Shown here: positions 2,166 to 62,290 of the stretch, one piece after another
Position numbering within the stretch: position 1 is the first letter of the stretch
Layout of the letters: the number at the start of each line of letters is the position of its first letter
From: Elsinoe ampelina
Lineage: Eukaryota
NCBI GenBank assembly: GCA_010093995.1
Contig: ML992509.1
Span: forward strand, 1,325,850-1,389,849
Length of the DNA: 64,000 nucleotides
Direction: 5' to 3'
Notes under the pieces: model-generated
The model's database searches: none
What the model saw: only the letters and a program-made list of their open reading frames with translations
Told to the model about the DNA's origin: nothing
Position numbers and translations under genes: made by a program

Positions 2166-2450
2166 ATGTGCACTTGCAATATTTCAAGTGTAGAGATAGG
2201 AATGTTGTTGCATAGTTTTGTAGTCGATCAATGTGATTGTATAATCTGCTCTGAGTTCAGTATTGCGTGAGATCTTCGTTGTAGCAGGTGTCTCGTTGTA
2301 GAAGAACCTCGCATCGGCTCCGATACTTGCTACTTGTCGATTCTCTCCTTCGCGGAATCCCCATTATCCTCCCAATCGGCTCTCATACGTCCTCAGCAAT
2401 GGACGCAGCGTCCTCACTTCACGACCCTCTCGATCCTCCAGAACTCATCC

Positions 2451-9862: not shown

Positions 9863-10682
9863 ATGTCGACCAACACAATCGCATTCTTTGGCGCTAGCGG
9901 CGGCTGCGTTGGCTTCTCACTCGTACACGCACTCAAGAATGGCTACACCTGTAGAACTCTCACGCGCAGTGACCCAGAGAAGCTAAAGACCACTCTTCGA
10001 GAGCGAGGTGTATCTCAAGAAGCCATTGAGAAGCAGCTCATCGCCCTCCAAGGTGACGGGCAAGACAAAGCCAAGGTGAAGGAGACCATCACGCATAATG
10101 GCAAAATTGTCGACAAGATCCTGTCTGGCATTGGTATGTACCTTCAAGGCAACAATCAGAGAAGGCGGCTAACATGTCGGAGGTACCACCGCCATCACGG
10201 TCAAGTTCTCAATCTACCCATTGGTTCTCAAGGATGCGCACGTCTGCGAAACTGCAATGGCAACTCTCGTAAAAGCCGCCACGGAAGTGACACAAGAGCT
10301 GCCGGGATCTACCAAACCAGCACTCTACGTCGTGTCCACCACGGGCATCTCCAAAGGTCCACGGGACGTACCAATCGCATTCTGGCTGCTATACAAGTGG
10401 CTTCTCAAGAGCCCGCACGACGACAAGGAGAAGATGGAGGAGTTGGCTGTGTCATCTGCCAAAGTTGCCAACGGACCATTCGACAGCGCCAAAATCGTTC
10501 GCGCCAGCTTGCTCACCGACGGCGACAGTTGTGGCATGGATGGTATCAGAGCTGGCACTGAGGCTAAGCCGACCGTCGGGTACACCATCTCGAGGTCTGA
10601 TGTAGGTCTCTGGATCTACAAGAGGTGGTTGGAGCCGCAGAAGGACGGTGATGAGACTGGTGCTTATACCATCACCTACTGA
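9863..10682 (+). CDS. NAD(P)-binding Rossmann oxidoreductase (flavin reductase/BLVRB-like atypical SDR); intron ~10134-10182
   Basis: TIAFFGASGGCVG dinucleotide motif, VVSTTGIS, PHDDKEKME, VGYTISRSDVG. A GTATGT..GCTAAC..AG intron joins the two ORFs. TATA-like TATATATAA near 9723. Confidence 0.85.
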
Positions 10683-33957: not shown

Positions 33958-35111
33958 ATGCTCTTCAAGTCTGGACAGTCAGCGGCGCGCGCGGCCGCGA
34001 CGATTCGCAATGCATTGAACTCAACAAAGGTACACACCCAAAACACCCAGCACTCCCGAGGTCTACGTCTAGACATCAAATCAGTCACGATACATCAGGT
34101 TGATCGATTCATTGTCAAACACTGACATTCTGACAGCGTAACGCATCCACATCAAGCAATGGCGAGGCATCACAGTGGCGGACGACTGCCGTCGGATCTG
34201 GCGCAACCCTTCTCGCTGTTGGATCTGTTGGATGGTATTACCACATGTTTGGCCGATCCGCAGCTGCCATGACACCCGCGGAAGAAGGGTGAGTTGACCC
34301 AAAGAACACGGAAATATGGGTGGGACTGATATATCCACAGCCTTCACGCTACCAAGTACCCCTGGGAGCACGAGAAGCTCGCAAAGACCTACGACCATCA
34401 AGCATTGCGAAGAGGTTTCCAGGTCTACCGCGAGGTCTGCGCATCCTGCCATTCTCTCCAGCGCATCCCGTACCGGACACTGGTTGGTTCTATCATGACT
34501 GTGGATGAGGCCAAGGTTTTGGCAGAAGAGAACGAATACGACACCGAGCCCAACGACGAGGGAGAGATTGAGAAGAGGCCAGGAAAGCTTTCGGACTATA
34601 TTCCGTCGCCTTACAAGAACGACGAGGCCGCCCGTGCTGCCAACAACGGTGCTCTGCCCCCAGATCTCAGCTTGATGGTCAAGGCCAGGCACGGTGGTTG
34701 CAACTATATCTTTTCGCTTCTCACTGGGTACCCCGAAGAGCCTCCTGCTGGCGCGACTGTCCAATCTGGTCTCAACTTCAACCCATACTTCCCCGGTACC
34801 GGTATCGCTATGGCCCGTGTGCTCTATGACGGCCTTGTCGAGTACGAGGATGGCACTCCGGCCACCACCTCGCAGATGGCCAAGGACGTTGTTGAGTTTC
34901 TGAACTGGACCGCCGAGCCCGAGATGGACGAGCGCAAGAAGATGGGCTGGAAGGTCATGGCTGTCGGCACTGTGCTCTTTGCCTTGAGCGTGTGGGTCAA
35001 GAGGTATGTTTGTCAGATCTTGTCATTGACGTATGTACACTAACAACTTTCTCCAGGTACAAGTGGTCCAACATCAAGACCCGCAAGATTATCTACAACC
35101 CACCCAAGTAA
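33958..35111 (+). CDS. CYT1: Mitochondrial cytochrome c1; 4 exons
   Basis: Presequence MLFKSGQSAARAAA, heme motif CASCH, GALPPDLSL, FNPYFPG, AEPEMDERKKMG and a C-terminal TM segment. Confidence 0.97.
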
Positions 35112-35508
35112 AGATGAATACATGATGGAGGATGCTGGTAGATAGGTTCGTGTAAAGAAACGGAGTTTACGTTTGCATGCAGCTAGCGTGGACGCGTTGA
35201 TGCTCAGTAGCATAGATCTTCATGGCTGACATATCAGCCTCCTTTCTTTTTCCGCTGTAAATCAATCATGTTCAAACCATCCTTTGTGTTGTATTTGCGT
35301 CTTGTTCATGAGCAAGGACTCTAGCCTTGCATGAGTGGGTTCGCGTGGATGTTTCGGCCCTCAGATGCCACTACACAGCTTCTATGCCATCAATCGCCCC
35401 TTCCCAACAACGTCAAACCACGTGATAGCATCGTTAACGTGAACCCACCTTGTCGAGGTTTAACAACGGCCGAACCCACCTGTTCCTGCCAAGAACTTCT
35501 CCGAGCGC

Positions 35509-35671
35509 TGATGGCACTGGACTCAGAACTTGATAAAGGACGTGATTACTTGACGGTTAACTATCTGACGATGAAATCTGGCTAAGTACGTGCAAACTTG
35601 CTACCCTTCCTAAAAGGGTTTAGCGGCTGACAAAGCGCTTTCCCAAAGGCCAGCCAAACTTGCCGTCCGCA
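35509..35671 (-). repeat. 3' LTR of outer Gypsy element (163 bp, TG..CA)
   Basis: Matches 52940-53102 at all but 3 positions, all RIP-type. Preceded by TSD GCGC (35505-35508). Confidence 0.93.
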
Positions 35672-36218
35672 ACACTGCCAGGTTAGAAAGATCGCTGTTG
35701 CCGGCAGGCTGAGTGGCAACTCAAGCCAGCCTGGCAAGCAGTCGATGATTGTCATTTAGCCTAGATATCAACTCCATATTCCCTCCGCAAGCATCCTCGT
35801 CCTTCCTTTTACTAGGGGGGGGGAAACTATCTATCGTAGTAAAAAGAGGTATAAACTAGTAAATATGTAGTGCTAGAAAGGGGCAGTGAATCGTGCTCGG
35901 AAAGCTCTCGAAAGCTGCTAATAATAATATATATACTGTCGTAAATGTTGTTAATTATAATTGCTTAAACGCTTGTTAAAGAAGAGAAATAGTAGGTCGT
36001 TAGACCCTTATCTAGCATCTAGCTAGGCATCTAGCTCTATCGGAGCTAGGTATCCCCTACTATCCGGTAGAGAGAAAGAGAAGACTATAAACTATTAACT
36101 ATTAAGAGTTACTGTGTAAAAGCTATATATTAGAGAATAGTAACTTACTATCTATGTTAAGCTACACCTATAAGTTGTTATATATACGAGTAGGATTATT
36201 GTTCTAAGCTATAAAACC

Positions 36219-38600
36219 TTAAGTGGGATTACTAGCTATCTTCTCTTCTATAAGTTTAGTATAATTCTACTCTAGTGCCTTATCTTCTTCTTTAGGGAAT
36301 ACCTCCTTCTAGTTATAGGTCTTAATGTCTAGATTAGCCTCTACCTCTAAATCCTTCCCGAATATGTAGTTAGGGGTAATATTATAATACTTAAGCTATT
36401 AGGTGAGACTCTTAATAATAGTATAATCTCTAAGTACTATAGCGCTTCTAAACTTATCCCTATAAGTAATAAGCTCTAACACCTTAGATATATACTTGTT
36501 AATCTTCTCCTACTACTTCTATAGACGTTTATACTACTTAGCGATTGTAGCATCTTAGTCCTCTAGTTCGTTAATAAGCTTGTCCTAATTCTCTATTATC
36601 TGCTTCTTAAGTTCGTAGTACGCTAACTTCTAGAATAGAGCTACTTCCTTAATCTTCTTTCTATTAGTAGTACCTCTCTCGATTATCTACTCTATCTTTA
36701 TTAACTCCTCTTCCTGCTTTACTAGTATAGCTATATACTCCTCGAGCTTCTACCTAATGTCTTTATAAGCCTCTTTCTGTATCTTAACTCTTATCTTAGC
36801 GTTAGTAAGAGACTTCTCGAAGAGTGTTAGGCCCTCCTTAACCTTCTTACCTAGGCGGCCCTTCTCTAGCTCGCTAATAACCTATACTAACAATCTATAC
36901 TATGCTTTTAAGGCCTGCTACTACTAAGCTATAGTGTAGATATTAAGCTTCTAGCCTCGGCGTAATAGTTCTACTTGCTTGCTATTAGCGGCCTTCTCCC
37001 TAGTTATCTTCTTTGCCTATTGTCTAGTGTCTAGATTATTGCCTTAAACTAGGAGGCCGTTCTACTTACGTTAGCGTTTAACACTATAATTCTTAAACCG
37101 GATTAGATTCTTAAACTTCTCCGGACCTTACTTATTCTTGTTCTTATATAGTATAGCCTAAAACTTAATAGGGACGCTAATCTCTTTAGGATTAATCTAT
37201 AACTAGAGATAGTTAGCCTTAATGTTGCCTCTATAGTCTAGGTACTTACGATAGTACTCTAGTCTATAGCTCTTAGTTAGCTAGCCTTAACAGGAGACTA
37301 GTAGCTTATAAATGTCCTTCGTAAACTCCTTTAGCTTCTTATTTAGAATTTTAGCTTGTCTTTTCTTATACTTAGCCTTAGACAGGTATAGTAGATAATC
37401 CGGACGCGGGTAATCTATCGCTCTCTTAAAGTTAGCGTAGCGTTTACTCCTAGTAGTAGTTTGCTTCTTAATACTATATTATGTTAAGCGGAAGGCACGT
37501 TTAGGGGTAGAGTATTATATAGAACCAATCCGCACACTAGTTAGGTAATAGACGAGTTAATTAATTAAGGAGTCTATCTACCGAAGGAAAGAACAGCTAT
37601 AAATCCCTAGGACTTAGCATTATATAACCTATAGTCATGTGACCTTCGGGCCTAATTATCTAGAGAGAGCTATATTCTTAGCATATTAGGTAATTCTCGT
37701 AGCTTTAGTAACTAGGTATACTTCGAGGGTAAAGACTAGCGCCTTCTTATTCGTTACACCCTTAGGGCAACTACGCCCTAGCTTCTTAACTGCTGCTTTA
37801 TCCCTGTCTTTAATCTCTTTAGCCTCGTCGTCGGTGTCGATATAGGCTATAGACTTTCCTACCTTCTTCGTCTTAGTAGTAGGTTTAGTTACCGCTTCTA
37901 CGGACTTACTAGCTACACTAAAAAGCTTATCGAGCAAGTCTACTATTACCTAAGACTCGTCTAGCGAGACGACTAGGACGTCCTTAGCCGTAACATGATA
38001 CTAGATTGCCTATCCCTTAATATTAAAGTCTCTACTTCTCTCCCCTCGCTCTTTACTATAATACTAATACCTCTTATTATTATCTTCCCTAATTCGCTCT
38101 TCGGCTAGTTCCGTGCACACTATATATCTTTTATTATTATACTCTCTCTAACTTAAGTAAAACCTCTTAATTGGCCTCCTATACTTCGTACGCTCTAATA
38201 CTATTGTTGTTTTATAGTATCCCTTATTAAAGTTATCTCTTACCTTAACATCGTCTCGCTCTTTATCTCTCTTATAACTATAGTCGTCTATGTCTAAGTA
38301 TTCGGACTAGTCTTCGTCTATATTATATTTCTATTCCGACTCTAACTTAGGTAGCCTATTATATATCTTATCGAAGGTTTAGGTATTACAAACTACATTT
38401 AGTAGACTTAACTATCTAGTATTAGCTATGTCGGCGTCGCCTAGAAGCGCTAGGTTAAGCGGAAAGTCGTAGGGATTACTCGTTAGCTAAGCTAGATTGT
38501 CGGCTATGTCGATGTTAAGGTTCTATAAGGCGTCTATACTGTCGGGGAGATTATTCTTATCTAGAGTTGTCTAAAATAATGCTAGATATAAAAACTCGCT
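36219..38600 (-). pseudogene. RIP-destroyed extra ORF of the Gypsy element (acidic N-terminus, coiled-coil C-terminus; family unknown)
   Basis: One reading frame runs from ~38100 to ~36219 once the solo LTR is removed, with stops being TAG/TAA revertible to CAG/TGG/CAA. Includes the surviving ORF 37686-37937. Upstream acidic segment (DFPLDPALLG after de-RIP) is in another frame; the 5' limit is approximate. Confidence 0.65.
37482..37683 (-). mobile_element. Solo LTR (202 bp) of the Copia family, inverted relative to the full copy
   Basis: Reverse complement of 40781-40982; TG..CA ends; TATTA on both flanks (37477-37481, 37684-37688). Confidence 0.93.
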
Positions 38601-40780
38601 CTAAACTATAAATTAGAGTCTAGGCACTATAGATTAAGTGCTAGATAGTAACGCTATTAGCTAGGATTGCACTAAAGGTCGCGAGATAGTAAAGTAGTAG
38701 TAGATAAAGAAGAAGAGGTTATTATCGTACTAGAATGTTTAATATAGGCGGCTACGCTACCTTAGCTACAACCGCTAATATATAATCCCCTTACATTTGC
38801 TATCCCTATATAGTAACTTACTAGTCGTAGTCGTTACTACGGCCCGCATATATTTCGTGCCATCCTTTAATTCTAGCTATCTATCGATATCTAGCGTAGC
38901 TAGGGGGAGAAATAGGCCCTAGGTTACTATACTTACTAATTTGCTTATAGCCGACAAGTATTCTAGCTAGTCTAGCGATAGATTGCCCTAGCCCCCTCTT
39001 ATCTAGCGCTACTAGTGGATGCTCTATAGTCCGTCGATAACTGCGCCTACACTGCTAGTCGACGCCTTCTAACACTTATAGGGCCTTACGAGATATAGGT
39101 AGTAAGTATTAGAGTAGGACTCAAAAATTAGAATTAGCTATCGGTAAGACAATATAGATTAATAATGACTAAAGACTTAATTGTTCTTAATGATATAGGA
39201 TGCTATACTATGCTATATAATTCTACCCTATTAAAGAACGCCTCTAATACCTTCGCTTAAGTAATTACTAAGGCTTATGCCTTCCCTCTATAACACTATA
39301 CTAAAAAATTAAAAAAAAACACTAAGTAATGCTATACACCTATCTCTCCTCTCTAAAAAGCAAATAAAAACGCTATTACTATCCTCCCTAATATTCTACT
39401 AAACCCTCGAGACATCCTCTACTATACTAACTGTAGGTTTAACTACAAGTTCCGTACTATAGTTCGCCTAACTATACTACTACTACTAGGTTAGAAAGAT
39501 CCTCTAGTCTAGGAGCTTATATGTATATATCCGAACTATTAGAGCGCTAGTACTCTCCTTCTCTAGTATTCCGCGTCTAGATCTTAGTCCTTAACCTCTA
39601 GTACCTCCCCCCTATTATCCCTAGTGTCTATTGTATCTTCCTTGCTCTTAGTCTTATAGACCTTGCCCTTAGCGTAACGGGTGCTCTAGTCTTTAAGGTT
39701 CGCGAGGTATATGTCTCTAATCTCCGTAAGGTTATATCTATTATAGTAGTTACTCTCTTCGCGCGGTATAAACATCTTTAGATTGTTAATATAGTATTAG
39801 CTAATCTTCTTACTAGTGCGGACACCTGCAAGTACTATAGTGTTATGTGCTCGCTTCTCTATAAGGAAAGGGCTAGTCTATCGGGGCTCTATCTTTCTTC
39901 CTCGCTAAGTATTAAGCTCTATTCGACATAGTAACACTAGGTCCCCTAGCCTTAGCTCTTGCTATGTGTAACTAGATCTTACGGTATTAGAGTTATATAC
40001 GTTAAGCTTTGCTTCGCTATATATATCTCTTATCTTATTAATCTTAGTAAGTCGTTCGTGCATAGAGATAGCTATAGTGTTTAGAGCTAGGCTATTACCC
40101 CGGCCTAATAGTTCGCTTAGAGATTCGACTTTAATTTCGTTAATAGCGTTAGACTTAACCTTTAGCTCCCTATAACGTAGTGTCTATCCGAACATAAGTT
40201 GTGCTAGTATAAAGCTCTTAATTCTTAATGCCCTTAAGTTAAGTAAGTACGAGATAGGAGTAATAAGCCTATTCTAATCTATCTTAATATCCGGCAAATC
40301 CTTAATCTCCTTTTAAAGGCCGACTTTTAATATCTGTACGTAACGCTCTATAAGTCTAACCGAGCTTAGTAAGCCTAGGGCAGTAAAGATCTACTCGACG
40401 AGTAGTGTTATAAAGAACTATAACACCTCGTTTCTAAAGTAAGCTTCGTTATTATAGTACGTAGTTCTTAGCATACTAAAGACACTAAAGATCTTTTTTA
40501 AGATCTTAACGACTATAGCCGAATTAGCAAGTATTGTAGGCTCTATCTAGTTAAAGCTACTAAAGTAGTCTACTACGATTAGTGTATACCGATAACTACT
40601 CCGCGATGCTAGAGATATCGGCCCTAAGAAGTCTATTCTAATTATGTCTATTAGGGTAAGATATAAGACTAGGAGGAGCGTCGCTAATGGCCTTAGCGGG
40701 CCTACTATCTAGCATAGGAAGTATAATCTATAATATGTAGCAATCTGTTCCGCTCTCTTCGGCTAATAAAACTTATTAAT

Positions 40781-40982
40781 TGCTAAGAATATAGCTCTCT
40801 CTAGATAATTAGGCCCGAAGGTCATATGACTACAGGTTATGTAATGCTAAGTCCTAGGGATTTATAGCTATTCTTTCCTTCGGTAGATAGACTCCTTAAT
40901 TAATTAACTCGTCTATTACCTAACTAGTGTGCGGATTGGTTCTATACAATACTCTACCCCTAAACGTGCCTTCTGCTTAATA
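40781..40982 (+). repeat. Copia 5' LTR
   Basis: Aligns without gaps to 45898-46099; about 12 differences, all transitions. Confidence 0.93.
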
Positions 40983-43900
40983 GGTTATAAGCCTAGAGCT
41001 TATAGCACAAGTATAGAATTGTATGTATAGTAGTTAGCCTACTACTTAAACAAAACGGAAGCGGAATTATAATATCCCTACCGCCTTATAGTCAACTATC
41101 TAGATACCTTTAGTAAGCCTAGTAGACTATACTATAAGTTGTGAAAGATTGTACTACTTAGGACAACAAGTAGGAATAGCACTTCTATTTAGCATAGATT
41201 TAACTCCTGTAATTGTTCTACTATAGCTGCTGTTCATTAGCTAGATTAACTAAACATATTCGATTTATTAACTTCCTCTAAGGCCTAGCTAGCCTTATAG
41301 ACAACTATTAACTAGAGGTTATTAACTAAACTCGACCTTTATCTATTTATTTAATTCTCTTCTCCTTAGAGAACTTAATTCCTAACTATAGAAGATTAGT
41401 CCTTATCTTTAAGAAGACTAGTTGTTAAGCTTAATAGACTTAACTAGAGAGAATAGTTCTACTAGATAGAAATGTACCTTACAAGTAAGAATGCCTTCTA
41501 GACTATTCGTAGTTAGACTACCCCTTTAGTAACACTATTATCTAATAACACCTCTAGCTCCTTTTTAGTCCTACCTATTAAGTTAAAGGACTAGTAAAAG
41601 GCCAATGTAACTACTAAGTACTAGGTTGTCTAGTGCATCTTATAAGATAACAAAGAGTTACTATATAAGGAAGAGCTTACATTAGAATATTAGAGATTAC
41701 TTAAGTCTAAGTATAAAACAAACCTTAAGGTAAGCGTAAGGGAGCTAGTTATCTAATTTGTAAACTACAAGATAGATAAGTAGGACACTATTAATAAAGC
41801 TTAGTCCTACCTTACTAGCCTAGGAAGACAGATCGCTATTGTCTACCTAGATAAGGGTTATTAGAGGGCAGTAGAGAGATTATAGTAGCTTCTCTCTTCT
41901 CTTCCTAACGACTATAGGTTTACAAGGCAAGCAATTAAAGTAAGGGGATTAACTAACATAGATAAGGTCCTTCTTATTCTTAAGGAGGAAGAGAGACGCC
42001 TTAGTAAGCATAAGATTACTATATTTGCTAGGGGGAGACTAAATTAAGGACCTAGTAGAAGTACAAGCTATACATATATCCTCTACTTATAGGCTAGTCA
42101 CACTATAACTAGATGCCCTTAACTTTAAAGAGCATAGAGGCATATTTAGCCTTCCTATAGGATTACTAAGAGCCTACTAAGGAGAAGAAGATCTCTATTA
42201 GCTTCTAATGATCTAGTCACCCTTGTTAGGCATCTTACTAAGAAGGTTAATAGACTAGAAGTAGCATCTAAGTTAAAGAAAGGCAAAGCCTTTACTACTG
42301 CTAAAGGCTAGTCCGAACCTTTCTCTCTAATCTTAACTCTACTACCTAAAGTTCTATTAGGTAAAGAGGAACTTAAGACTATAGGCTCTGTATTAGAGGT
42401 ACAAGGTAAGCTTTCACATTATTAGTAGATGCTTAACTCTAGAGCATCCAACTATATAACAGACAAGCTAACCCTCTTTAGGGGCCTATTAAGCAAGATA
42501 CACACTCGATAGATCTAGGTTAGGGGGGGTTACCTTTAGTTATAGTCAATAGAAACCGCTGTTATTAAGACTAAGAAGGGAGATAAGATAAAGGTATAGG
42601 CTCTTTATATACCTAATCTTAGTGTTAATTTAGTCTTCTATCGTAAGCTATGTATAGATTTAGAAGTTTCTAGAGTTCTTAATTCAAATTCTTTTCTTGT
42701 TCTTAATTTATAAAAGCAGCTACTACTTGAAGCTAGAATTCGAAGAGGGGTATACATTATCTAATCCCTCTTTAAGTAGTTAGCTAATCAAAAGCCGTAT
42801 TCTAGATCTAAGCCCGGCTTAATTCTAGATTTAGCCAATTAGGACATAGCATTCCTTACTACTTAGCTAGTAATTATATCACACACTAAGTATACATATC
42901 TAACCTAGAATAAGCAACATAAGGATCTTATTAATTTAAGACCCGACAACTCTAATATAGAGTACTAACTCTAGTATAGGAGATTTGCTCACCTTAGAGT
43001 TAAGAAGCTTAGGGATCTTTATAAGGTTACAACTCTTAAGAAGCCTATTAATTTAAACCATGATTTGTTAATCCTATGTAAGGTCTGTTCCTTGACAAAG
43101 ATAAGGAATAGAAGAGGCAAAACTTTACAGAGAAGACTAGAGGTTCTTTAGCTTGTTTATGCTAACATCTGTAGCCTAATTAAAGTAAGTAGAGAAGGAT
43201 TTAGATACTTCCTAGAGCTTATAGACAGCCATTTAAGGATAACATAGATTATACTACTTAAGACAAGAGATAAAGCCCTATAGAGGCTTATTAAGTAGAA
43301 GCTAAGGGTTAAGAAGGAAAGTAATACTAAAGTTAAGGTTACTAGATCAGATAATACTAGTAAGCTTAATAAGATTCTAAAGTAGTAGGAGCGCTAAGAA
43401 GGCATCTATTACACAACTACTGAGCTATATAATTCAATCTAGAATAGACTAGTAGAGAAAGGCATCTAAACCTTAGAGAATGGTATAAGAGCAATGCTTA
43501 AGGACTTAAAGATGCTAAATAAGTTCTAGCCTAAAGCAGTTTAGGTAGATACATATCTAAGGAACAGGACAGCAACTAGACCTATAATTAATAATAAGCA
43601 AGTTACACTAATTAAGGCCTATATAGGCATTAAGCCATTAGTTAATTATATTAGAGTCTAGGGCTATAAGGTATACACCTATATAAACCTAAAGTCCCTT
43701 CCTATATATAGAAGAAAAGATAAGCTTATAGATAGAGGGAGAGTAGGAGTATTCCTTAGCTATATAGATAGAACTAACAGGATGTACAAGATATAGGCAC
43801 CTAACAGGAAGGTAGTAATTATATTACTAAATGTTAAGTTCTCTAAATTTGAGAAAGGTAGGAATATTAATCTTAGTATCAAGATTAGCACTACGAGCAA

Positions 43901-45897
43901 TTAAGCACTAGTTAGGAGACTAATTAGTAGACTAACCTAGATCCGAGCCCGGCTTAATCCTAAGGTAGACTAATTAGATTAGCCTATTTAGTAAGAAGCG
44001 CCTATAGGGAGAATCTTCTTACACATTAAGATTCTAAGGGTTAACCCTATTAACCTTATAGAATTCTAACGTAGAGAAGAGCTAATAGTTCAATCTATAT
44101 TACCTAGTTATATAGGTCAATCACTTAAGAGATTAAGAGATAAAGAATCTAATAATAAAGAGCCTAAGGTAAAGCATTATAGAGCATTTATTACTAAGTA
44201 TATTAATTGGCAAGATAAGGTTAATAAGATTACTATAACAGCCTCTATTAAGTAATATATCCTAATTCTAAGAGACTACTATAAGGCTATTACTAATCCA
44301 GTTTAGGGAAGTAAGTGGCAGGAAGCAATTAATGTAGAGCTTAATACTCTAGGATTAAACAATACATAGGAAGAGGTTATTCCTCTAAAAGGATTAAACT
44401 TAGTAACATCTAAGTAGGTCTTTAATGTCAAATATAACACGGATAGCTCCATTAAGAAGTTTAAGGCTAGACTTGTTACTAGAGGCTTCTTATAGAAGTA
44501 TAGCATTAACTATAAAGACATATTTACACCAACAGTTAGAGTAGATATACTAAGACTATTCTTTGCTATCGTGTGTATACTTGACCTTAAATGTCATTAG
44601 GTGGATATTAATAATACCTTTACAGAATTATTCCTTAGGGAAGTAATTTATATAAGGCTACTACCTAGACTTAAGGTCTAACTTAGCATTGCCTTCCGTA
44701 TTCTTAGGAGCTTATATAGACTTAAGTAAGCTACTAGAGATTAGAATTAGCACTGCATCTCTAAGCTTTTAAAGCTAGGCTTTACTTAGAGCGAAGTAGA
44801 CCTCTATCTTCTTATATACTATAATAAGAAGATTATTCTCTTAGTTTATGTTAATAACATACTATTTACAGTATAAAGCAAAGAGAACATCTAGTGGTTT
44901 AAGCAAGAGCTTAGCAGAATCTTCAAGATTAAGGATCTTAGTAAGGTTAGTAAAGTTCTTAGGGTTAAGGTTATAAGGGACAGACAATAAGGAACCTTAA
45001 GGCTTAACTAGACCCACTATATAGATGATGTGCTATAGAGGCTTAACATAACCTCTAACAAGGCTACTCTAACAAAGTAGCTAATAGACAATAAGCTCCC
45101 TTAGAGAGCTTAGACTAAAGATATAAGGTTTAGTAGAACTAAGTACTTATATACTATTAGAAGCTAGATATACCTTAGTACCCTAACAAGACTAGACACT
45201 GCCTTTGCCTTAGGAAGGCTTAGTCAGTTTATGGCAGATCTAATAGACAGCTATACTATTAAGATAAAGAAGATGTCAAGATACATTAGATTAACTAAAG
45301 ATCTTAGTATAGTGTTTAGGAGGAATAGTAATAAGACTCTTAAGGGATATTCTGATTTAGACTATGCCTTAGACAAGATAGACAGAGTCTCTATTCTTAG
45401 ATACGTCTTTATGCTTGTAGGTGGTCCTATTAGCTAGATAAGTAGGAAGTAGAAGTCTGTTTTAACCTCTACTATAGAGGCTAAATATATAGTAATATAC
45501 TCTTGTATAAAGAGATTATAGTTCCTATCTTAGTTACTAAGAGACATAGGCTGTTATAAGATAGTTAGTTAATCACCTTAGAAGCTAACTATAAAGGAGT
45601 CTTAGAAAGTAATAATGAGATCACCCTTTACTACTAAGATTAATAGTGATAACTAGGCGGCTCTTTCACTTATAAAGGAGCTACATACTTATAAAAGGGC
45701 AAAACACATTAATGTTGCTTACTACTACGTTAGGAGGCTATAGAGGGACTAGAGGATATAGGTTAAGTTTGTAAGGACAGTAGACATAGTAGCTAATAGG
45801 TTAACTAAGCTATTGCAAGGTTAGAACTTTACGAGGTTTATGAAGCAACTTGGCTTATTATTAACCTAATAGCTCATCTACAGGAGCTAAGTAGGAG

Positions 45898-46099
45898 TAC
45901 TAAGAATATAGCTCTCTCTAGATAATTAGGCCTAAAGGTTATATAACTACAGGTCATGTAATGCTAAGTCCTAGGGATTTATAGCTGTTCTTTCCTTCAG
46001 TAGATAGACTCCTTAATTAATTAACTCGTCTATCACCTAACTAGTGTGCGGATTGGTTCTATATAATACTCTACCCCTGAACGTGCCTTCTGCTTAACA
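45898..46099 (+). repeat. Copia 3' LTR
   Basis: Aligns to 40781-40982; ends ..AACA followed by TTAAT. Confidence 0.93.
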
Positions 46100-49000
46100 T
46101 TAATAACCTTATAAAGGACAAGTTGTAAGGAGAAATGTCTATGCTTATTATAAAAGGTCGATAACACCTAATCTACTTCGTGCTTAACTAGACATTATAT
46201 AAGCTCCCTATTCTACTCCTTATAGACAAGCATTAGGTTGTAACTGTCGATAAGCAAAAATCGTCGTGCCTGTCGCACTACTCGTTTACGACGTGCTAGG
46301 TCGTTTATGCCCTTATACTAGGGTATTATACCACAAATAAGAAGGGACACTACGTCTCGGTACTACCTATAGGTGGCCTATTTCCTGTATTTATTAAACT
46401 TATTAACGAACTTATCGGTTATATCTTTAGTCGTAGAGCTAGTAAGTTATAGAACTATCGCTATAGCTAAGCATAGGTAATCCTTCTTATTTAGGTTAAT
46501 AAGGTCGATGTTAGAACTAGTTAGCCTTAATAAGCTATCGGCTATAGGATTCTTCTTACTAGGAAGGTGTACTATCTTAAAGTTGTATTTAGAGAATCTA
46601 AGTTACTAGCGGGAAAGCCTTCCCCTAGAATCGTTGTTCTTTATTACTGTAATTAATGCTTAATAATCTATGTACTATATAAATAGGTATTTATAGCCGA
46701 TAAGTAACTATCGATATTCGTCTATAGCTCTTAAGCTAGCTAGAGCCTTACGCTCTGTAATATAGTATTTACGTTCCGTATTTAAAAATTTCTAGGACAT
46801 AAAGGACACAATTCTAAAGTCGTCTAGTGTAGCTTCTATAAGTAATTAGCTGTCCTAGTATCCGTTGTCGAGTTAGAGTAATACGCCTCTAGCTTCTATA
46901 TTTAATACGTCGGTAACTAAGTAGTATTAAAGGGTATTATATCCCCTAGATAACTTGTTAGCTGTAACTGCTGCCTTTACTCTCTAGAAGGCAGCTTCGG
47001 CTATGTCGTTCTATTTAAAGCTGACAACTTAATGCTTCTTACGAGTGTAGCCGGGGATAGCTATAAGTTCCGTCTTAAGAGCCGTCTTTATTACAGTTAT
47101 TAAGTCTACCTGTCCGGGAATTAGCGAAGATAGCTACGAGAGCATCTATAGGAATTAGTTAAGGCTTGCTTTATCGTAAGGCCGAGGAATCTTACTAACT
47201 ATAGCAATCTTCTTAGGAGTCAGCTACAAGTTCCTAGATTCGATTTTATAGCCTAGTAACTTAATCTTATAAGTAAAGAAGGTAGACTTCGTAGGATTAA
47301 GTATTAGCTTTACCTAGGCGACCCGCGGGAAATAATAGTAGTGCAGGAAGAAAATTAACTCCTTATTCGTCTCGGTAGCGCTAGCGTCGTTATTAACGAA
47401 GCAGCCGAATGTCGCCTTAGGTGCGCACTTATAAAGGGCTAGTTCGCTAAAAGGGCCTAGGATAAAGCTAGAGAAAACATTCTTAAGTGTAGTATATGTT
47501 AAGCATACACTAGTAAGACCTTAGCCTATACGGGTATTAGCGAGTTGTCTATAAATCGAATAGAAGGCCGTCTTATACACATGCTTCTACTAAACTTTTA
47601 TAGCCTAATACCTGTTAGTAGTATCGGCGCTAAAGTAAGTAGTAAATCTAGCCTAGGCTAGACAATTACGAATTGGTTCTATACGTAGCATAAGTGTGTT
47701 CTCCTTAATAGTGGCGTTATTAATTGGAATATAAGCATACACTATCCTAAGGGATCTATTTTGCTTTCTAGAGTGTCGAGTTTTTATACACTAAGGTAAT
47801 CTAGGCACGTAGACTAGTATCCCCTAGTTAATTATAGCTAGGAGCACTTCCTTCTAATATGCCTCTTCCTCCTTGTTAAAGATACTATAACAGGCCACGG
47901 ATAGTCTTAAATCCTTATAGGTAGGTATATAGTAAATAACTAGATCTATTATAGGTATAGCTTAGATATTATTATAGAAGAGATTCTCCTATATAGCTAG
48001 CAAGTTTATAATCTATTCTTACTCTTCTTCTATACGTACTATATCGCCGATAAGGTTTAGGTATTACTCTACTAGCTTATTTATTCGTTCTCTCTATTAA
48101 GGTGTCGCCTCTATCCTAGATCGACGGAATTACTTTAGTCGTCGCTAGGTAGGAAACCTATACGCCCGATGCTTACTAAACTTCTTATCCTCCTTAGGTT
48201 TAGCGGTTAGAGGTTAATATACGATCGGTGGCTTCATCTTTAACCTAAACCTTAACTCCTTCTCTTCTTCGTACCTAGTCTACTCCCTGTCCGAGGTAGT
48301 AGGCTAAGGGTTACTCCTGTAACTAGTCTCTAGTAGGACCTCTACCTCTAGGAAGAACGCCTTAACTCCGCCCTTATGCCGTAGGCAACTTACCGGCTGT
48401 AAAACTGTAACTAATAAGTCTAGAGCACTCTCCGCGTAAGTATATCTTGGCTTAATAGAGAGCTTTTTGCCTAGATAGTAGGTAGAGTAATAGATGCCTT
48501 TAAAGGGCATTATCGTTAGTCTAGTAGTTAGTAATAGTATAGGTGCATAGCTAAAGAACTTGTCGTAGGTAGTAGCTTCTAGGTGAATAGAATCGTCCCT
48601 ATAAACAACTATAACCTTAGCGTGTTCCTTATTCTAGTATAGGCTACTTATTAACTCGTCGCACCTCTCGAGGACTATGTCCTTAACCGCTCGAGCTATA
48701 ACGTCGAATAGCAGCCGTAAATATAACGCTTGCTACAAGCATATAGCGTCTATACTCGCTATAATAGCGTCTAGTCTACTTAGGATAAGCTGTCCCTAGT
48801 CGTAGGAAAGCTTTAAACTTACTAGTAGTAGTATAGTCCGTATGTACTACTAAATCTGTTTCGATAGCGCGACGTATAAAGTGTCGCCGTCGGGTAGTAT
48901 AAATCGTAGATCCTCGTCGATATAGCAAGTTATTATACCTATAGCGCGATCTAACTTGCGGGCTGCTCGATTAACTCTACGCTATAAAGTTCGATCTATA

Positions 49001-52000
49001 GGTAGACCTATATGTTTGTATCTTTACTTGTCGTTTATCTCGTCTTAGGCTCGATTATCTATCTACTATAGCTGCGCCCTAGCCTCCCTAATTCGTCGTG
49101 TAAAGTAATTAGGATAAGTGTCTTAAAGGGCTAATATTACTACTATAGACTTAATCCCGGTATTCTCCGTAGCTTAGACTTACTGCCGGAAGGTACTAAT
49201 ATTATTTTGTACTTCGCCTATGTCTTCTACGTCTATAGAGTCTAGGCTCTTTATAGACGCCTACCTTTCCCTATCTTGCCGACTATTAGCTTCTAGGCTT
49301 AAGGGTCGAAATATCTATAGTTTACTCCTAGAGCTCTCTATATAATCTTACTAACATCTATACTTAATATATCTATACTTCTCTTAGGTACTATAGGGAC
49401 ATTTAGACTTACTAGTGTAGACGGCGGAGCAATTAGTACAGTTAGCAACTTTATGTTTATCTTCTTTACTAAGATATACTATCTAGTAGCATCTCTAATA
49501 TATATAGTTTAGAGTCCGTAGTCTTCGATAATCCCTACTATATAGAGATAAAGTCTTCCGAGTAGGATAGTAAATAGGCTAGCCTTAGCTATAACCTACA
49601 CCTTAACATTATAGGCGACACTCGAGATCTTAATAGCGTAGTAAGTATACTCCTTAAGTAGATCGGTAGAACTATTCGCGACTCTTATAGTAATCGAGAC
49701 ATCCGAGTAAATATAGGTTAGATAGAGAGCCTTAAGAGCTTAACGTGCGATTAAGTTAATTATCGACTCTAAGTTAAGTAGGACAAGACTAGTCTTAAAT
49801 CCTTCCGAGGTAATACCTTTTATCTTATCGATATAGGTAATAACTACAGTAGTAAAGAAGTTAGTAAACTAAATCTTAGTGCTTACGTCCTAAGTAGTAA
49901 GCCTAGCAGTGTCTATCTAGACTTAAGTAGCGTAAACTAACTATAAGAGCTTATGCTCGGCATCCTTAGTCTAAACTATATTTGCTAGATAAGTAGCCTT
50001 ATAACACTTACGAGGTATAATTAATTTGCTTATAATCTGTAAGTGAATATTGTAGCTCTAGTCTATAAGAACGTAGAATAGGATATTAGTAGGCACTATA
50101 ACTTGCTTAAATACCTCCTACTAGTTAATGTCTATACCTTCTACTCCGTAGATGTGTAGTAGGTTCTTCTTCTTGTTCTACTAGCGTAATTTAGAGTAAT
50201 ATTCGCTAGCTAAAGGTAGTTAAGCGACAGGTTGCAAGGGAACACTCTCTATCTATAGTAATTCTTAATACTAAGTAGTATCTATATAATGATTGCGGAT
50301 TTAAATATTAACGTCGTTACTCTCCGACTTAGACATCTTTACTAGAATACTTACTAGCTATTAGACACTTATAGGTACCGGTTCCTCCGGCACTTCGGAC
50401 TTGTTATTCTTAATAGTAACGATCCTCTAGTTGTCTATAAGGTAATTTACATATTCGTATAGATTCGCCTTCCTCTTCTTACTAATGCTATAGCTATAGA
50501 TCCTACTCTCTAGGTTAATAAGAGAATATAGCTTACGCCTAGAAGCCTTAGTAACTCTACCGGAGCGAGTAACTAGAGCTACAATCTTATCCTAGATAGC
50601 TAGCTAACGAAGGAGTAATACTAGTTTACTTCTCTCTACGAGGTTAACTTCCTCGTTAAGTATTAGGTAACTGAATTGTAAATCGAAATAAGAGTAGAGA
50701 TAACTAGAGCTTATAGTAACGATGTTAATGTAACTTATATCTACTAGGAGGTTATCGATCTTATTAACCTAAGCTTGCTAGTATAAGTAATTCCTACGTT
50801 AAAGTATTTATACTCTCTTCTTCTTCTTAGAGTAATCGACCTATACCTTATAGTCTCTAGCTATATGTCCTAGATGTAAGTAGTTATAGTAGTAACTATT
50901 AGGGATATCTCCGAGTCCCTTAATAAACTAGGTGCCGATTACTAGGGGTAGGACATACCTCTACTAAATGTTGCTCTACGGCTAGGCTAGCCCTTACGGC
51001 CTTTATAGCTACTATAGTGGCCGAACTATTCCGGCTATAGATTAACCCTAAATTTGTTACTAGCCGTTGTACCCTAGGACAGCTATTATTAAAGCTCTAT
51101 AGAACTTAGTAACTACGTTAGCTATAGACTTCTATAAAGCGAGAAGGGCTTTTATCTTCTTATCGAAATATAACATCGGCTTAGCCTAAGGCGGTAGGGG
51201 AGGTCTAGCCATTTAGGGAACGTAGTTAACGTAGTAAGGCTACACTCTAAAGACCTAGTTAAAGTCGAGCTTTTAGTTGCCTATAGTATCTAGGGTGATA
51301 GTGCATAGAGCGTCGAATATAAGAGGCCTACCTATAGTATCTACGCTTAAATAGGAGTTATAGATATAAGACCTAAGCTATAGTTCCCTTAAGCTATTAG
51401 CAAACTTCTTCTTAACTATATACTAGATCGACGTATCCTATTCTATAGAGATGTTCTAGAGCTAACAGCCGCGATAAATATAGCTCGGCAATAATTCGTC
51501 CTTCTCCTACTTATAGGTAGTAATAGTATTAAAGAACACTCCTATCTTACTCTTCTTCTTAATAGGAGAGAAAGCCTCTTTAAGAGCGATTAGAAAGGGA
51601 TCTAATTTAAACTTGTCTTCGTCTGTCCTCTAGATGTATAAGTAATAGAAGTAAAGTAAGTCTCCGCTAAGGAACTAGCTAATAATAACCCTAGCAACAA
51701 ATGCTTAATTAGGTTTAGTAGCCTCCGGCTCTATGTTGTCCTTAACTACCTTCCTAATTAATCGAGACTAGTCTTTAAATAACAATAGGGTGTTCTTAGT
51801 AAGCATAAATAGCTTAAACATGTTGTCCCTAGCTAGCCTCCTTAACTAGAAGGCACTATCCGGCTAGCTAAATAGATCTAGTATACCTACACCTACTATA
51901 GTGTTAGGATTCTTTAGAGTGTCGGCGAGAGATAATTAAGAAGGTTAAATAGGTTATTTAGGCTTGATAATCTTAATTTTAGGTGTCTCGTTAGCGGGGT

Positions 52001-52939
52001 TAGCTACCTTACCTAGTAGTATAGATTAGGAACTAGAGAGAGAAGACTTAAGTAAGAAGTTGCCGAGTTAACTACTTAGATTGCCACCTATTAACATAAG
52101 GTAGAAGAAGTTATTCTCTAGTAATTAATCTAGCGCCTTCTTCTTTCCCTCCTACTTTCGCTACTTCTTAGGTTTAAGCAGGTTAGTGTTCTTGTTTAAC
52201 TTAGATAAGTTGCTCTCTAATTGTAATAACTCGAGGGCTTCGCCTAGAGCTTTATTATAGAATGTGTTAGAAGCTAGTATTATTAACTAAACAGCTAGGG
52301 ACGCAACTCTTTAGCTACTCTAGTAGCGTACTAACTGACTTGCTAGCTGTAGTCTAACGCCTATAGGTTTATAGTAAGGTAATATAAGGTATATTATAGT
52401 CGAGGTAAAGTAGTAGAAGTAGATTACTAAGGGCTCTTAGCTTTATAGAGATGTTAGGAGAATTCGAGACAACTATAATAGCGTAAGACACTTACTACTA
52501 GCTACGAACTGCCGATTAAAGCGATAAGTGTATAGCTTGTTCTTAATGATAATTCTACACTTACTAGTCTTAAGGGGAATAGAGAGCAAGTGTTAATAAT
52601 AGAATTAATTTACTTATTGTCTCGATAGCTTAACTTTAGATATAGTAATGCCTATAGAACTTAGTCACCTAAAAGGTAACTACGATAATACTATAGTAAA
52701 TTTCGACAAGTCTCGTAGTGTAATAATAGTTTTCGAGGGTATAAGAAGTTACTAGTAATAGAATATTATTATTAATTACTAGTGTAGCTCTCCTATAATG
52801 GTTGCTAGCAGAGGTGTAGCGTACAAGTCGAACTAGACAGACTGTTGCCTCGCAACGATATAATAAGGGATTGTTTCAAATAAGAACTTACTAATAAAGA
52901 TTACGCCTTATAATAGTAGCCTTACCTTCGGCTCTAAAT

Positions 52940-53102
52940 TAATGGCACTGGACTTAGAACTTGATAAAGGACGTGATTACTTGACGGTTAACTATCTGAC
53001 GATGAAATCTGGCTAAGTACGTGCAAACTTGCTACCCTTCCCAAAAGGGTTTAGCGGCTGACAAAGCGCTTTCCCAAAGGCCAGCCAAACTTGCCGTCCG
53101 CA
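52940..53102 (-). repeat. 5' LTR of outer Gypsy element (163 bp)
   Basis: Direct repeat of 35509-35671; followed by TSD GCGC (53103-53106). Confidence 0.93.
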
Positions 53103-53329
53103 GCGCGTTCCAGTCCCACATTTCCGGGACATGCGCCTCATCCTGCTCCGACTTCTTCTTCACATGCCGCATTCTCCAACTTTTTGTGTTTGTGTTTCCT
53201 GCCATTGTCCTTCGTTCTCGTTTTAGCTGAGCGTCGTTTCAAATCTTCTTCAACTGCAGATCTTATGCACCTATCCTGTATCCTACTTCACCGAGCGCAG
53301 ACACGAATTGAGGTTTCGCCCTCGAGACT

Positions 53330-54513
53330 ATGGCCCCAGGCTCAAAAGCCGATGGCGCAGCAGCAGATGCCGTAAAAGATGCCATAGACAGAGCAGACAT
53401 TGACTATCCATGGTGGTTCGGGGGCTCAGCATCGTGTTTCGCAGTGTGCTTGACGCACCCACTTGATCTCAGTAAGGCTTTTCTCATTCACTTTTCAAAT
53501 CTCGAGTCTCAGATCCTGCAAGACCTTCTGGGGCATCGAGAGAAGAGTCGCGTCGTATCCTCGTAGATTCCATGCTAATACAGGATAGTAAAGGTCCGAA
53601 TGCAAGCTGCACAAAAGTCGCCCGTGCGGTTAGGCGCGGTAGGGACAGCGATCGATGTTGTCAAGAAGGACAGTGTGCCAGGCTTGTATCGAGGTGTAAG
53701 CACAATTGCTTGGGCGTTAAGCTATTTGACTGACGATACATAGCTCACAGCAGGTCTCGCAAGACAATGTATGTTTCTTCAAGACTCCTGAGGTCAAACA
53801 ATTAACAAGGTCCAGTACTCTACGGTACCACCCGCTTCGCCGTCTACGACATGCTCAAAGCCCGCCTCCAACACCAACACGACACGCCTGGCCACACATC
53901 ACCAACGTCCCCGAGTATGCTCGCCCTCGTCGCCGCCGCCTCCTTCTCCGGCTTCCTAGGCGGCATAGTAGGCAACCCCGCCGACCTCGCCAACGTCAGA
54001 ATGCAGAACGACTCCACCCTCCCACCCGACCAACGGCGAAACTACCGCAATGTCTTCTCTGCCTGGACAAGCATGGCCCGCGAGCCTGGCGGCTTCCCCA
54101 AGAACTCCATGCGCGGTGTATGGGCCAACAGTACCAGAGCAGCCATCATGACCGCCTCGCAACTCGCCGCCTATGACGGATTCAAAAGCGTCCTCAGCTC
54201 GCCGAATGGCTTCTTCAAGCTCTCCCCGGACAGCAGCGTGACGCATCTGACGGCTTCGACACTGGCTGGACTGGTCGCCACAACGCTCTGTTCACCCGTG
54301 GACGTGCTGAAGACGCAGATCATGAAGGCCAGAGCGGATGAGGTGAAGAGTGTGGGTGAGCTGATGAGGACGAACTTTGCAGAGAGTGGACCGCGGTGGA
54401 TGTTCAGGGGGTGGGTGCCGAGTTTCACCAGGTTGGGACCTCAGACAGTAGCGACTATGATGATCCTGGAACAGCATCGGAGGGTGTATAGGTGGTTCAA
54501 GGGGATTGAGTAG
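53330..54513 (+). CDS. DIC1: Mitochondrial dicarboxylate carrier; 4 exons including a ~25-nt microexon
   Basis: YPWWFGGSASCFAVCLTHPLDL|.KVRMQ, GNPADLANVRMQND, MTASQLAAYD, CSPVDVLKTQIM, FRGWVPSFTRLGPQT. Confidence 0.92.
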
Positions 54514-61699: not shown

Positions 61700-62290
61700 A
61701 TGAAGAGCTACAATCAACATCGCAGCGTGCTCGGAGTGGGCATGACCACTTCTCTCGTCCTACTCCTTACACTGCTAGCCTCTGTCGCTCAAGGCTCACC
61801 CATCATCACTACCGACAAGGACACCACTGGTCACCAAATCTGCAACTACAAGAATTTCTACCAGTGCGCCCCTTCCTTGGCCTATGAGAACGCTGTAGCA
61901 TTCGGTCACTCAATCGTCGACGATGCTCGTCACCTGAACGATCTCTACAAGCGTCGAGGGGGTGGAGGAAGCGGTGGTGGATCGGGTGGAGGATCAGGCG
62001 GCGGCTCTGGGGGCAGTGGCGGTTCTGGAGGAGGAAGCTCTGGTGGCAGTTCTGGTGGGAGCTCTGGCGGGAGCTCTGGTGGCAGTTCTGGCGGGAGTTC
62101 TGGTGGCAGTTCAGGCAGCTCTGGCAGCTCAGGCGCTAGCTCTGGTGGTGGAGGCCGCTCAAGTGGCTCAAGTGGCGGAGCAGCAGTCGTCGGTTCTTCT
62201 GGCTCGCGCAGCGCTGCCTCAACTCATAGTCAGGCTGTTGGCTTTGTTTCGGTCATTGTTGCTATTTCCGCAGCTTGTCTACTCATTTGA
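61700..62290 (+). CDS. Small secreted Gly/Ser-rich protein with KRR site and GPI-like C-terminus
   Basis: Signal-like TSLVLLLTLLASVAQG, two Cys, YKRR, (GGSS)n tract, and small-residue omega region plus hydrophobic tail VGFVSVIVAISAACLLI. Confidence 0.75.
   Translation: MKSYNQHRSVLGVGMTTSLVLLLTLLASVAQGSPIITTDKDTTGHQICNYKNFYQCAPSLAYENAVAFGHSIVDDARHLNDLYKRRGGGGSGGGSGGGSGGGSGGSGGSGGGSSGGSSGGSSGGSSGGSSGGSSGGSSGSSGSSGASSGGGGRSSGSSGGAAVVGSSGSRSAASTHSQAVGFVSVIVAISAACLLI

Follow-up and report, generated by a model that had tools for sequence, protein, structure and literature searches.

Organisation of the element

The window, a stretch of 64,000 nucleotides of Elsinoe ampelina DNA, contains a RIP-mutated Ty3/Gypsy element that spans 35509-53102 on the minus strand and in which no chromodomain was seen. 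Its two LTRs show 3 differences in 163 bp, all transitions, and are flanked by a GCGC target duplication at 53103-53106 and 35505-35508. The insertion site is intergenic, between a cytochrome c1 gene and a mitochondrial-carrier gene. Read along the element, the backbone and the Copia element nested in it comprise the following features:

52940..53102, minus strand: 5' LTR of the outer Gypsy element, 163 bp, starting with TG, almost RIP-free
49350..52500, minus strand: gag-protease frame, RIP-mutated
46102..49350, minus strand: first part of pol, with ~350 unassigned codons, then RT, RNase H and the first half of the integrase zinc-binding region
40781..46099, plus strand: nested Ty1/Copia element of a multicopy family, inside the outer integrase, with ~200-bp LTRs and a TTAAT target duplication
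39512..40777, minus strand: integrase core and C-terminal tail of the outer element, pol ending near 39510
35509..35671, minus strand: 3' LTR, 163 bp, TG...CA

The domain order PR-RT-RNaseH-IN was recovered by tblastn with intact relatives as queries (PR at 49.9-49.5 kb, RT-RNaseH at 48.2-46.5 kb and IN at 40.8-39.75 kb), the protease region at 49900-49500 matching relatives at E 5e-5 to 5e-7. The outer pol has an RT_RNaseH Pfam match (E 2.7e-10) and, against longer proteins, two distant matches at 23-26% identity; the nested Copia has an RVT_2 Pfam match (E 1e-29), and its LTR has at least 40 matches. No chromodomain was seen in the window integrase, where RIP hides even rve, and none is present in the pol of three out of three intact relatives. 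The outer element is a Ty3/Gypsy LTR retrotransposon that does not qualify as a chromovirus, and this copy of it is dead. Without its Copia insertions it measures 12,063 bp, and 8,462 bp when the cassette described below is also removed. The sequence after the 5' LTR resembles that of the relative L103, and a 9-mer tRNA primer search was uninformative. A polypurine tract next to the 3' LTR is present in most relatives; none abuts the 3' LTR of the window element, where a 20-bp repeat stands instead and a purine tract lies ~135 bp upstream.

A former gene between pol and the 3' LTR

The coding signal of pol stops at ~39510 and the 3' LTR begins at 35671, 3.85 kb further on, in agreement with an earlier note on this DNA that had placed the end of pol near 39517 and the LTR 3.8 kb beyond it. 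The interval is occupied by these features:

39482..39501, minus strand: left copy of the 20-bp direct repeat, just after pol, RIP-mutated
38613..39481, minus strand: cassette spacer, non-coding, ~870 bp
37686..38612, minus strand: third ORF, part 1, ~295-309 codons, an acidic stretch followed by basic patches, no intact ATG left
37482..37683, minus strand: solo LTR of the same Copia family, 202 bp, target duplication TATTA, orientation opposite to the nested Copia
36201..37478, minus strand: third ORF, part 2, ~426 codons, a basic helical middle and an E/K-rich helical end (~36950-36410), exact stop unreadable
35694..36200, minus strand: cassette tail, non-coding, purine tract at ~35805-35826, last ~110 bp RIP-free
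35674..35693, minus strand: right copy of the 20-bp direct repeat, unmutated, 2 bp before the 3' LTR

Coding signal lies in a single minus-strand frame between ~38610 and 36200. Both native halves surpass 300 of 300 dinucleotide shuffles in stop rate and codon periodicity (12 stops in 295 codons and a periodicity chi2 of 47 at 37686-38570; 31 stops in 426 codons and a chi2 of 80 at 36201-37478), and neither the 940-bp stretch before the ORF nor the tail gave a coding signal above such shuffles. With a codon model trained on gag-pol, all 14 ORF blocks of 150 nt outside the solo LTR were positive. Because the gene keeps one frame, with no frameshifts seen and with native-half stops that are all TAA or TAG, it was probably intact until RIP. 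The ORF totals ~790 codons, of which ~720 are native and 69 come from the solo LTR, whose 207 bp with target duplication amount to 69 non-coding codons that keep the reading frame. The same-strand ORF of roughly 700 codons proposed earlier is borne out as a coding frame of that native length, and the gene does lie between pol and the LTR, but the supposedly clean 3.8-kb cassette has a Copia solo LTR inside its ORF. Together, these observations support the third ORF as a real former gene within the LTRs, and the spacer may have served as its promoter or splice region.

The composition of the predicted protein sets it apart from gag-pol. D+E reaches 0.25 at 38390-38211, near the ORF start, compared to 0.07-0.09 in gag-pol, and K+R reaches 0.20-0.32 in the middle compared to 0.13-0.16, so that the acidic N-terminal part and Lys/Arg-rich middle of the earlier description both stand. 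The E/K/Q coiled coil of that description is a candidate. Proline is absent from 36950-36411 and heptad periodicity reaches P<0.02 in 5 of 27 windows of the ORF, all starting between 36850 and 36550, but 6 of 49 RT-RNaseH windows also pass this test; the signal is therefore not specific, and the sequence is compatible with a coiled coil. An AlphaFold model of the second half contains long helices at a mean pLDDT of 47, a quality insufficient for fold searching. AT-hook-like and paired CxxC patterns were considered and set aside as not above background: an AT-hook-like patch at 37781 scores 14.4 bits, and 5 of 56,288 six-frame background positions, including 37781 itself, reach 14. A six-cysteine spacing of the Zn(II)2Cys6 type, with Tyr allowed for Cys, had no match in either half of the ORF, which runs in the sense direction.

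No transmembrane segment was found, the maximum 19-residue hydropathy being 1.1 and 1.3 in the two halves, in keeping with the earlier view of the product as not env-like. An envelope gene would fit the position and strand, and a helical heptad region is present, but we consider this origin extremely unlikely given the very high charge and the want of any hydrophobic segment (highest 19-residue mean 1.3), which RIP would be expected to accentuate rather than hide. The product looks like a soluble protein with high charge and mainly helical structure.

Searches with the third ORF, its stops entered as X, found no homologue among 8,000 candidates scored (lengths 434-1383 only), no match among 1.84 billion representatives, no Pfam family and no transposase, RT or recombinase match; its second half matched no PDB sequence at E<=10, and viral contigs yielded nothing by protein or motif. 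The cassette had no match in 109 clade loci by tblastn and blastn, and in a RIP-tolerant scan of 75 loci longer than 2.5 kb its forward scores were no better than reversed ones. These blanks weigh little because RIP also hides gag, which had no RIP-tolerant match to relatives, and integrase, which has no Pfam match. The suggestion of a captured host gene found no backing, with neither a donor in the genome nor a cellular homologue detected at a sensitivity lowered by RIP.

A probable footprint at the cassette ends

The 20-bp direct repeat brackets the cassette, and its motif occurs at these two sites only in the 28-Mb genome. When the 40 nt before the 3' LTR were compared with the 17.2-kb interior, the best match scored 18 and lay at the end of pol, whereas the null peaked at 14 (0 of 100). 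Among 15 relatives bearing LTR pairs, a label not given to the three repeat pairs at 66-75% identity in L085, L093 and L120, 14 had no comparable bracketing match above their own nulls, and that of L128 is marginal, purine-rich and far from the end of pol. The distance from the RT motif to the LTR, minus Copia and cassette, is 2,591 bp, and 13 of the 15 relatives are compact, at 2,536-2,955 bp. Since subtracting the cassette restores the distance of these relatives, the cassette is best read as an insert at the pol/3' LTR junction, and the duplication at both of its ends suggests a recent insertion whose scar is still visible. The repeat could alternatively be a kept cis-signal. The compact relatives and the repeat speak against the standing accessory gene of an unusual lineage that the earlier note had envisaged. 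We hypothesize, at a probability of roughly 0.55, that spacer, intron-free ORF of ~720 codons and tail form a gene module of 3.6 kb, inserted into a Gypsy of 8.5 kb, chromodomain-less but otherwise ordinary, exactly where pol meets the 3' LTR, with 20-21 bp duplicated.

A duplication of 20 bp is of a size typical of LINE-type or integrative insertions, and the outer Gypsy is already a proven site for nested insertions; both would suit a cassette that is itself mobile, as a non-autonomous element or one of a type not yet recognised, nested like the Copia with a 20-bp target duplication. We regard this as highly improbable. The cassette ends carry no terminal inverted or long direct repeats and no poly(A) at the sense end, no mobility enzyme was matched, no other copy was found compared to the abundant matches of the Copia LTR, and the exact pol/LTR junction would be a coincidence. 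Of the independent transposable element with its own termini and target duplication against which the earlier note had set its reading, the duplication-like repeat was found, and its own terminal repeats, enzyme and copies elsewhere were not.

The one relative of the 15 with a large third ORF, L115, lends support to the gene module reading and also to a rival. It is an 11.8-kb metagenome element of the same RT clade, in which short LTRs almost free of mutation enclose a RIP-mutated interior, and it has a charged, same-strand frame of ~850 codons after pol, so the pol/LTR slot has been used elsewhere in the clade. Central polypurine tracts are plus-strand priming sites in Ty1 and lentiviruses, and the third ORF could be a long-standing ORF3 of an unsampled sub-lineage, in which the 20-bp repeat would be a functional duplicated signal such as a second plus-strand priming site. 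The L115 ORF shares its position, strand, size class and charge pattern with the window ORF, one repeat copy lies at the required plus-strand primer position, no close relative is sampled (the best match is 32% identical over RT-RNaseH), and gag itself is unmatched in relatives, which leaves room for remote third-ORF homology. Both elements are also ~12 kb, like RLG_Rolly (11,875 bp; PMC3105345). However, L115 lacks the 20-bp repeat, the repeat itself is not rich in purines, and the cargo has no detectable homology to the L115 ORF, its scores being equalled by 35 and 38 of 100 shuffles, where the integrase control gave 339 versus 38. In a tree that kept 45 of 72 candidate rows, 27 having been dropped for frameshifts or poor coverage, the window element does not join L115 as sister, and deep nodes have 37-51% support. 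The nearest-scoring relatives, L082 and L110, look compact, with purine tracts within ~340 bp of the end of pol, and the blank among the 1.84 billion representatives tells against an old lineage as well. On balance, we find a long-standing ORF3 rather unlikely.

Elsewhere among the relatives, 4-bp target duplications are readable in 7 of 11. The third ORF of L115 had no homologue among 7,997 candidates, and two Pfam matches fell below the cut-off. An apparent third ORF in L071 is the gag of a tandem copy, and the longer 3' region of L103 consists of tandem repeats. Of 16 downstream ORFs scanned, those with matches are host or other-element genes, and 7 have no match.

RIP, copy number and proposed history

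The cassette is RIPped as heavily as pol, as the earlier note had stated (index 1.79 and 1.95 versus 1.52-1.67 in pol), and mutation is flat across it, ending at the LTRs and leaving host flanks untouched. The accompanying claim that it was multicopy is not borne out by this assembly, where cassette, gag-pol, integrase and LTR pair each match their own locus only. Neither a second copy of the cassette, as DNA or protein, nor a donor gene was found in the host genome, RIP again lowering sensitivity. Two of the six sequencing runs listed contain the DNA, both from the source sample, whose contigs join as assembled; a 176-bp contig of depth 3 from another sample matches 35709-35884, which is too short a match to build on. 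Even RIP over cassette and pol fits a putative joint transposition with the element, of which no sibling copy was found. Both RIP-mutated full-length elements, the window element and L115, bear a large third ORF, and none of the 14 unmutated ones with LTR pairs does, these 14 representing a handful of lineages.

RIP of the DIM-2 type can also strike non-repeated DNA beside repeats (10.1101/2021.04.05.438447). It is conceivable, though improbable, that the cassette is foreign or host DNA captured once at the DNA level after integration, has not moved since, and took up its mutations from RIP that spread out of the Copia copies or the LTR pair. The single copy in assembly and reads agrees with such a capture, as does the recency implied by the intact duplication. 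Yet RIP stays at pol level over 3.6 kb and spares the flanks outside the LTRs, the host has no donor gene, and gag-pol is single-copy too, so that lost siblings are needed regardless. Nearly all Copia flanks are AT-rich themselves, which would mask any leakage from Copia.

For the inserted gene module, we propose a history of four steps. The cassette would first have entered, leaving the observed footprint, most simply when RT jumped to another RNA template (the 3' module of another retroelement, or an mRNA) and returned, or else during the repair of a break. The enlarged 12.1-kb element, presumably with the cassette aboard, would then have transposed as a unit into the intergenic site, where its LTRs and target duplication are seen. 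RIP mutated pol and cassette evenly and spared the ends, probably while siblings existed. Finally, two insertions of a Copia family gave rise to the full copy and the solo LTR now seen.

Possible function

Donor, homologue, family and fold were not found, and any guess at function draws on composition. Tentatively, and with the odds against it, the product may have helped the element as a nuclear, self-associating protein that binds nucleic acid or chromatin, acting in RNA export, targeting or counter-silencing; as part of the same guess, the putative gene would have been expressed through a promoter of its own or by way of a spliced RNA, and would otherwise be a passenger. A broader and quite doubtful extension is that chromodomain-less Gypsies in RIP-competent fungi acquire, between pol and the 3' LTR, interchangeable modules of 3-4 kb for nuclear, self-associating, AT-rich-DNA- or RNA-binding proteins that counter silencing. 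Its hint is the presence of a large third ORF in the two RIP-mutated elements only, and under it the 20-bp footprint would be the relic of one such gain. The window offers one dead copy. With an unmutated copy, if one exists, the gain of third genes by retroelements could be tested directly, as could any help that such genes give against RIP or silencing.

Comparison with known systems

Descriptions of fungal Gypsy elements usually stop at gag-pol, and the few extra genes on record are without a known role. A survey of fungal Ty3/Gypsy elements describes sizes to over 13 kb and an extra ORF of unknown function, as in the window element; what it says of these includes no insertion footprint. 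Retention of a dated-looking arrival scar at the exact pol/LTR junction is unusual. As an element of an ascomycete host without a chromodomain, the window element resembles the Ylt1-like non-chromodomain lineage as characterised in PMC2864245, an assignment made by exclusion. RLG_Rolly of Leptosphaeria maculans is likewise a RIP-mutated Gypsy, and the resemblance is one of size only (11,875 bp with 235-bp LTRs versus 12,063 bp with 163-bp LTRs; PMC3105345), its reported 594 copies contrasting with the single copy found here (PMC3105345; PMC4210507).

Non-env third genes after pol, family-specific and sometimes low-copy transductions, are reported from plant LTR elements, as sense aORFs, and from LTR elements of bdelloid rotifers, as coiled-coil ORF3s (PMC7264820; PMC5408684), and CERV of the C. 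elegans element Cer1 is reported to act in the nucleus on element RNA (PMC10309623). They are not known to be homologous to the window ORF, and may serve as analogies for its possible action only. In position, the nearest counterpart is brtn of Boty/BcGypsy1 in Botrytis and Sclerotinia, also an extra gene between pol and the 3' LTR (10.1101/2021.04.13.439636; PMC7264820). As described there, brtn is antisense and family-wide, whereas the window ORF is sense, has ~720 codons and occurs in one copy of a chromodomain-less element. To the known extra genes of this broad kind, the present sequence adds an orphan sense gene in a chromodomain-less clade.

The outer Gypsy element and its setting

The window is fungal DNA belonging to contig 9 in an assembly of 28.3 Mb. 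Its GC content is 50-58% apart from one AT-rich block (~35.8-52.9 kb), which is occupied by a RIP-mutated Ty3/Gypsy element. Its principal features are as follows.

Features of the outer Gypsy element (minus strand)
52940-53102 and 35509-35671: 163-bp direct repeat, the LTR pair, bounding the AT-rich block
40781-46099: nested Copia element of 5.3 kb (plus strand) inside the outer integrase (RVT_2, E 1e-29; TSD TTAAT)
39482-39501 (directly after pol) and 35674-35693 (2 bp ahead of the 3' LTR): 20-bp direct repeat bracketing the cassette

These are true LTR ends, starting with TG and ending with CA, with three mismatches between the copies (every one a transition) and a GCGC target-site duplication on either side. 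Protease, RT-RNase H and integrase, mapped with intact relatives, follow on the minus strand in Gypsy order, and contigs from the source sample confirm the joins of the assembly. For the ~350 codons between protease and RT (48301-49350, minus strand), neither Pfam nor a RIP-tolerant comparison with the relatives gave a match.

A cytochrome c1 gene lies on one side of the element and a mitochondrial-carrier gene on the other, the element being upstream of the latter. The surrounding DNA is gene-rich (34330-35279 and 53730-54513), with the element ~230 bp beyond the point where the cytochrome c1 RNA contigs stop, whereas the flanks of the Copia family are nearly all AT-rich. Copia LTRs of this 200-bp family, present here in the nested element (40781-46099) and at 37482-37683, find at least 40 matches in the genome, many as pairs ~5.1 kb apart; the LTR contains a 31-bp imperfect palindrome. 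Elsewhere in the window, a host frame of 1,826 codons (54858-60338, minus strand) has no Pfam match and carries 21-bp tandem repeats (59160-59283); a Gly/Ser-type repeat region lies further right (61964-62115).

A former gene between pol and the 3' LTR

The coding signal of pol stops near 39510, and ~900 non-coding bases separate it from a third ORF, whose signal occupies a single minus-strand frame (~38610-36200). An earlier note had proposed a same-strand ORF here, and the coding tests bear this out: both halves exceed 300/300 shuffles in low stop rate and codon periodicity, while the spacer and tail of the cassette show no excess in either, and scoring with codon usage learned from gag-pol gives positive values in 14/14 blocks outside one gap. 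That gap is a second Copia insertion, a 202-bp solo LTR with a TATTA duplication; of the 41 matches that the entire interval finds in the genome, it produces 40. It contributes 69 in-frame codons, leaving ~720 native ones. Stops are exclusively TAA or TAG and no frameshift is seen. The third ORF is a real gene, once intact and now dead.

The composition of its product agrees with the earlier note: an acidic part lies close to the start, the middle is basic, the region towards the end is E/K-rich and also free of proline, and no hydrophobic segment occurs. The coiled coil it also proposed is plausible only, since the heptad periodicity test is passed by 5/27 windows of the second half and by 6/49 RT windows as well. 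Searches for a homologue, a Pfam family or, with the second half, a PDB sequence were all blank; the RIP-mutated integrase was equally blank in Pfam, so the missing matches do not show novelty. A single-sequence structure model is all-helical at low confidence, and neither an AT-hook-like patch (37781) nor a paired CxxC spacing (38126) rises above background. The picture that remains is of a soluble protein, charged and helical. CERV from a worm LTR element, which exports RNA and is nuclear (PMC10309623), and the nuclear products of plant aORFs (PMC7264820) offer an analogy by which it might tentatively be read as a nuclear nucleic-acid-binding helper; that the gene is a passenger has about the same likelihood.

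A probable insertion footprint in a compact element

The two copies of the bracketing repeat agree at 18/20 positions, both mismatches being RIP-type. Its score of 18 exceeds a null maximum of 14 (0/100) when the whole element interior is scanned, and with one mismatch allowed it occurs at these two genomic places only. A comparable repeat above the null is absent from 14 of 15 relatives with LTR pairs; in the remaining one, L128, a purine-rich match of marginal score lies at another place. Once Copia and the 3,808 bp from one repeat copy to the other are subtracted, the element measures 8,462 bp and its RT-motif-to-LTR distance is 2,591 bp.

Relatives came from an RT motif scan of metagenomes (109 loci). 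The window RT-RNase H matches 109/109 of them with a best full-length identity of 32%, and the sampled relatives are thus distant. LTR pairs at 96% identity or above were required, giving 15 relatives and leaving out three looser pairs; 13 of the 15 are compact (motif-to-LTR distance 2,536-2,955 bp), a range that spans the window's value. The cassette is therefore probably an insert within a compact Gypsy, flanked by a duplication at the ancestral pol/LTR junction; an accessory gene of the whole lineage, as had been suggested, is the less likely reading. Four-bp TSDs are legible in 7/11 relatives, and 3/3 intact pols lack a chromodomain.

No purine tract adjoins the 3' LTR (35672-35830). The nearest lies ~135 bp upstream, followed by a short TG-starting stretch with 7 bases in common with the LTR start; together they are possibly a relic PPT/U3 junction from a donor element.

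RIP has also mutated one of the relatives, L115, which is 11.8 kb long; its 128-bp LTRs are nearly clean, and it carries a third ORF of its own.

Third ORF of L115
Oriented 13250-15950 (locus ~540-3240, minus strand): charged, ~850-900 codons, after pol on the same strand

No homologue of this ORF was found. Neither BLAST nor a RIP-tolerant score (integrase control, 339 vs 38) detects homology between it and the window's third ORF, an absence tempered by the window gag being as invisible to that scan. A purine/pyrimidine tree (45/72 rows used) does not pair the window with L115 but groups it weakly (51%) with L082 and L110, two loci whose contigs have purine tracts shortly after pol and which therefore look compact. 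In L103, the longer region between pol and 3' LTR holds tandem ~33-bp repeats (oriented 10190-10400).

A distinctive RT motif marks the clade (L051-L159): three aspartates are followed by FLHxx[YF]FPR. RVT_1 scores at or below the Pfam cut-off in 3/3 intact pols, so standard annotation may miss the clade. L071 (3903-6074) is a head-to-tail Gypsy tandem with one common LTR, its gag containing a 12-residue repeat.

RIP, copy number and history

The RIP index is 1.79 and 1.95 in the third ORF and 1.52-1.67 in pol, matching the claim that both were hit as heavily, against 0.4-0.6 in the Gypsy LTRs; host DNA stands at about -0.8. DIM-2-type RIP may hit unrepeated DNA close to repeats, with linker and flanks affected equally (10.1101/2021.04.05.438447). 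Here the level is flat across the cassette and ends at the LTRs, and the host flanks are clean; a former multicopy state, as claimed earlier, would thus most likely account for the evenness of RIP. In the assembly, neither the cassette halves nor gag-pol nor the integrase find a match besides this locus, and the LTR finds none besides its partner; protein-level searches agree, all as lower bounds on copy number. Contig depth is close over cassette (198-237) and host flank (173-180), though depth is no copy count; two of six listed runs contain the DNA, both from the source sample.

In both RIP-mutated elements, short LTRs (35509-35800 and 52940-53102 in the window) are almost untouched beside heavily mutated interiors. 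This is not automatic, since LTRs of full copies are hit by RIP in Podospora (PMC10787394, which also gives size limits of RIP).

The module may have entered by a template jump in reverse transcription or by break repair, and would afterwards have transposed with the element, with sibling copies present at the time of RIP. Expression of the third ORF may have relied on a promoter of its own or on splicing.

Comparison with known elements

We found no description of this third ORF, or of such a footprint in fungi, in the open-licence literature. The element is Ylt1-like by exclusion only; Ylt1-like and complex nested elements are mentioned in PMC3248453, and RLG_Rolly resembles it in size alone (PMC3105345 Table 4; PMC4210507). 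That elements of RIP-competent hosts gain counter-silencing modules seems improbable, the idea arising from a third ORF in 2/2 RIP-mutated versus 0/14 unmutated elements, which are non-independent. Non-env ORF3s, coiled-coil types among them, are documented (PMC5408684), Boty carries an antisense extra gene, brtn (10.1101/2021.04.13.439636, PMC7264820), and low-copy transductions have been kept apart from family-wide aORFs (PMC7264820). Fungal Gypsies with an "add. ORF ... unknown function" are likewise in print (PMC2864245). Extra ORFs in fungal Gypsies are thus already known, and the window adds one more, with a probable insertion footprint.
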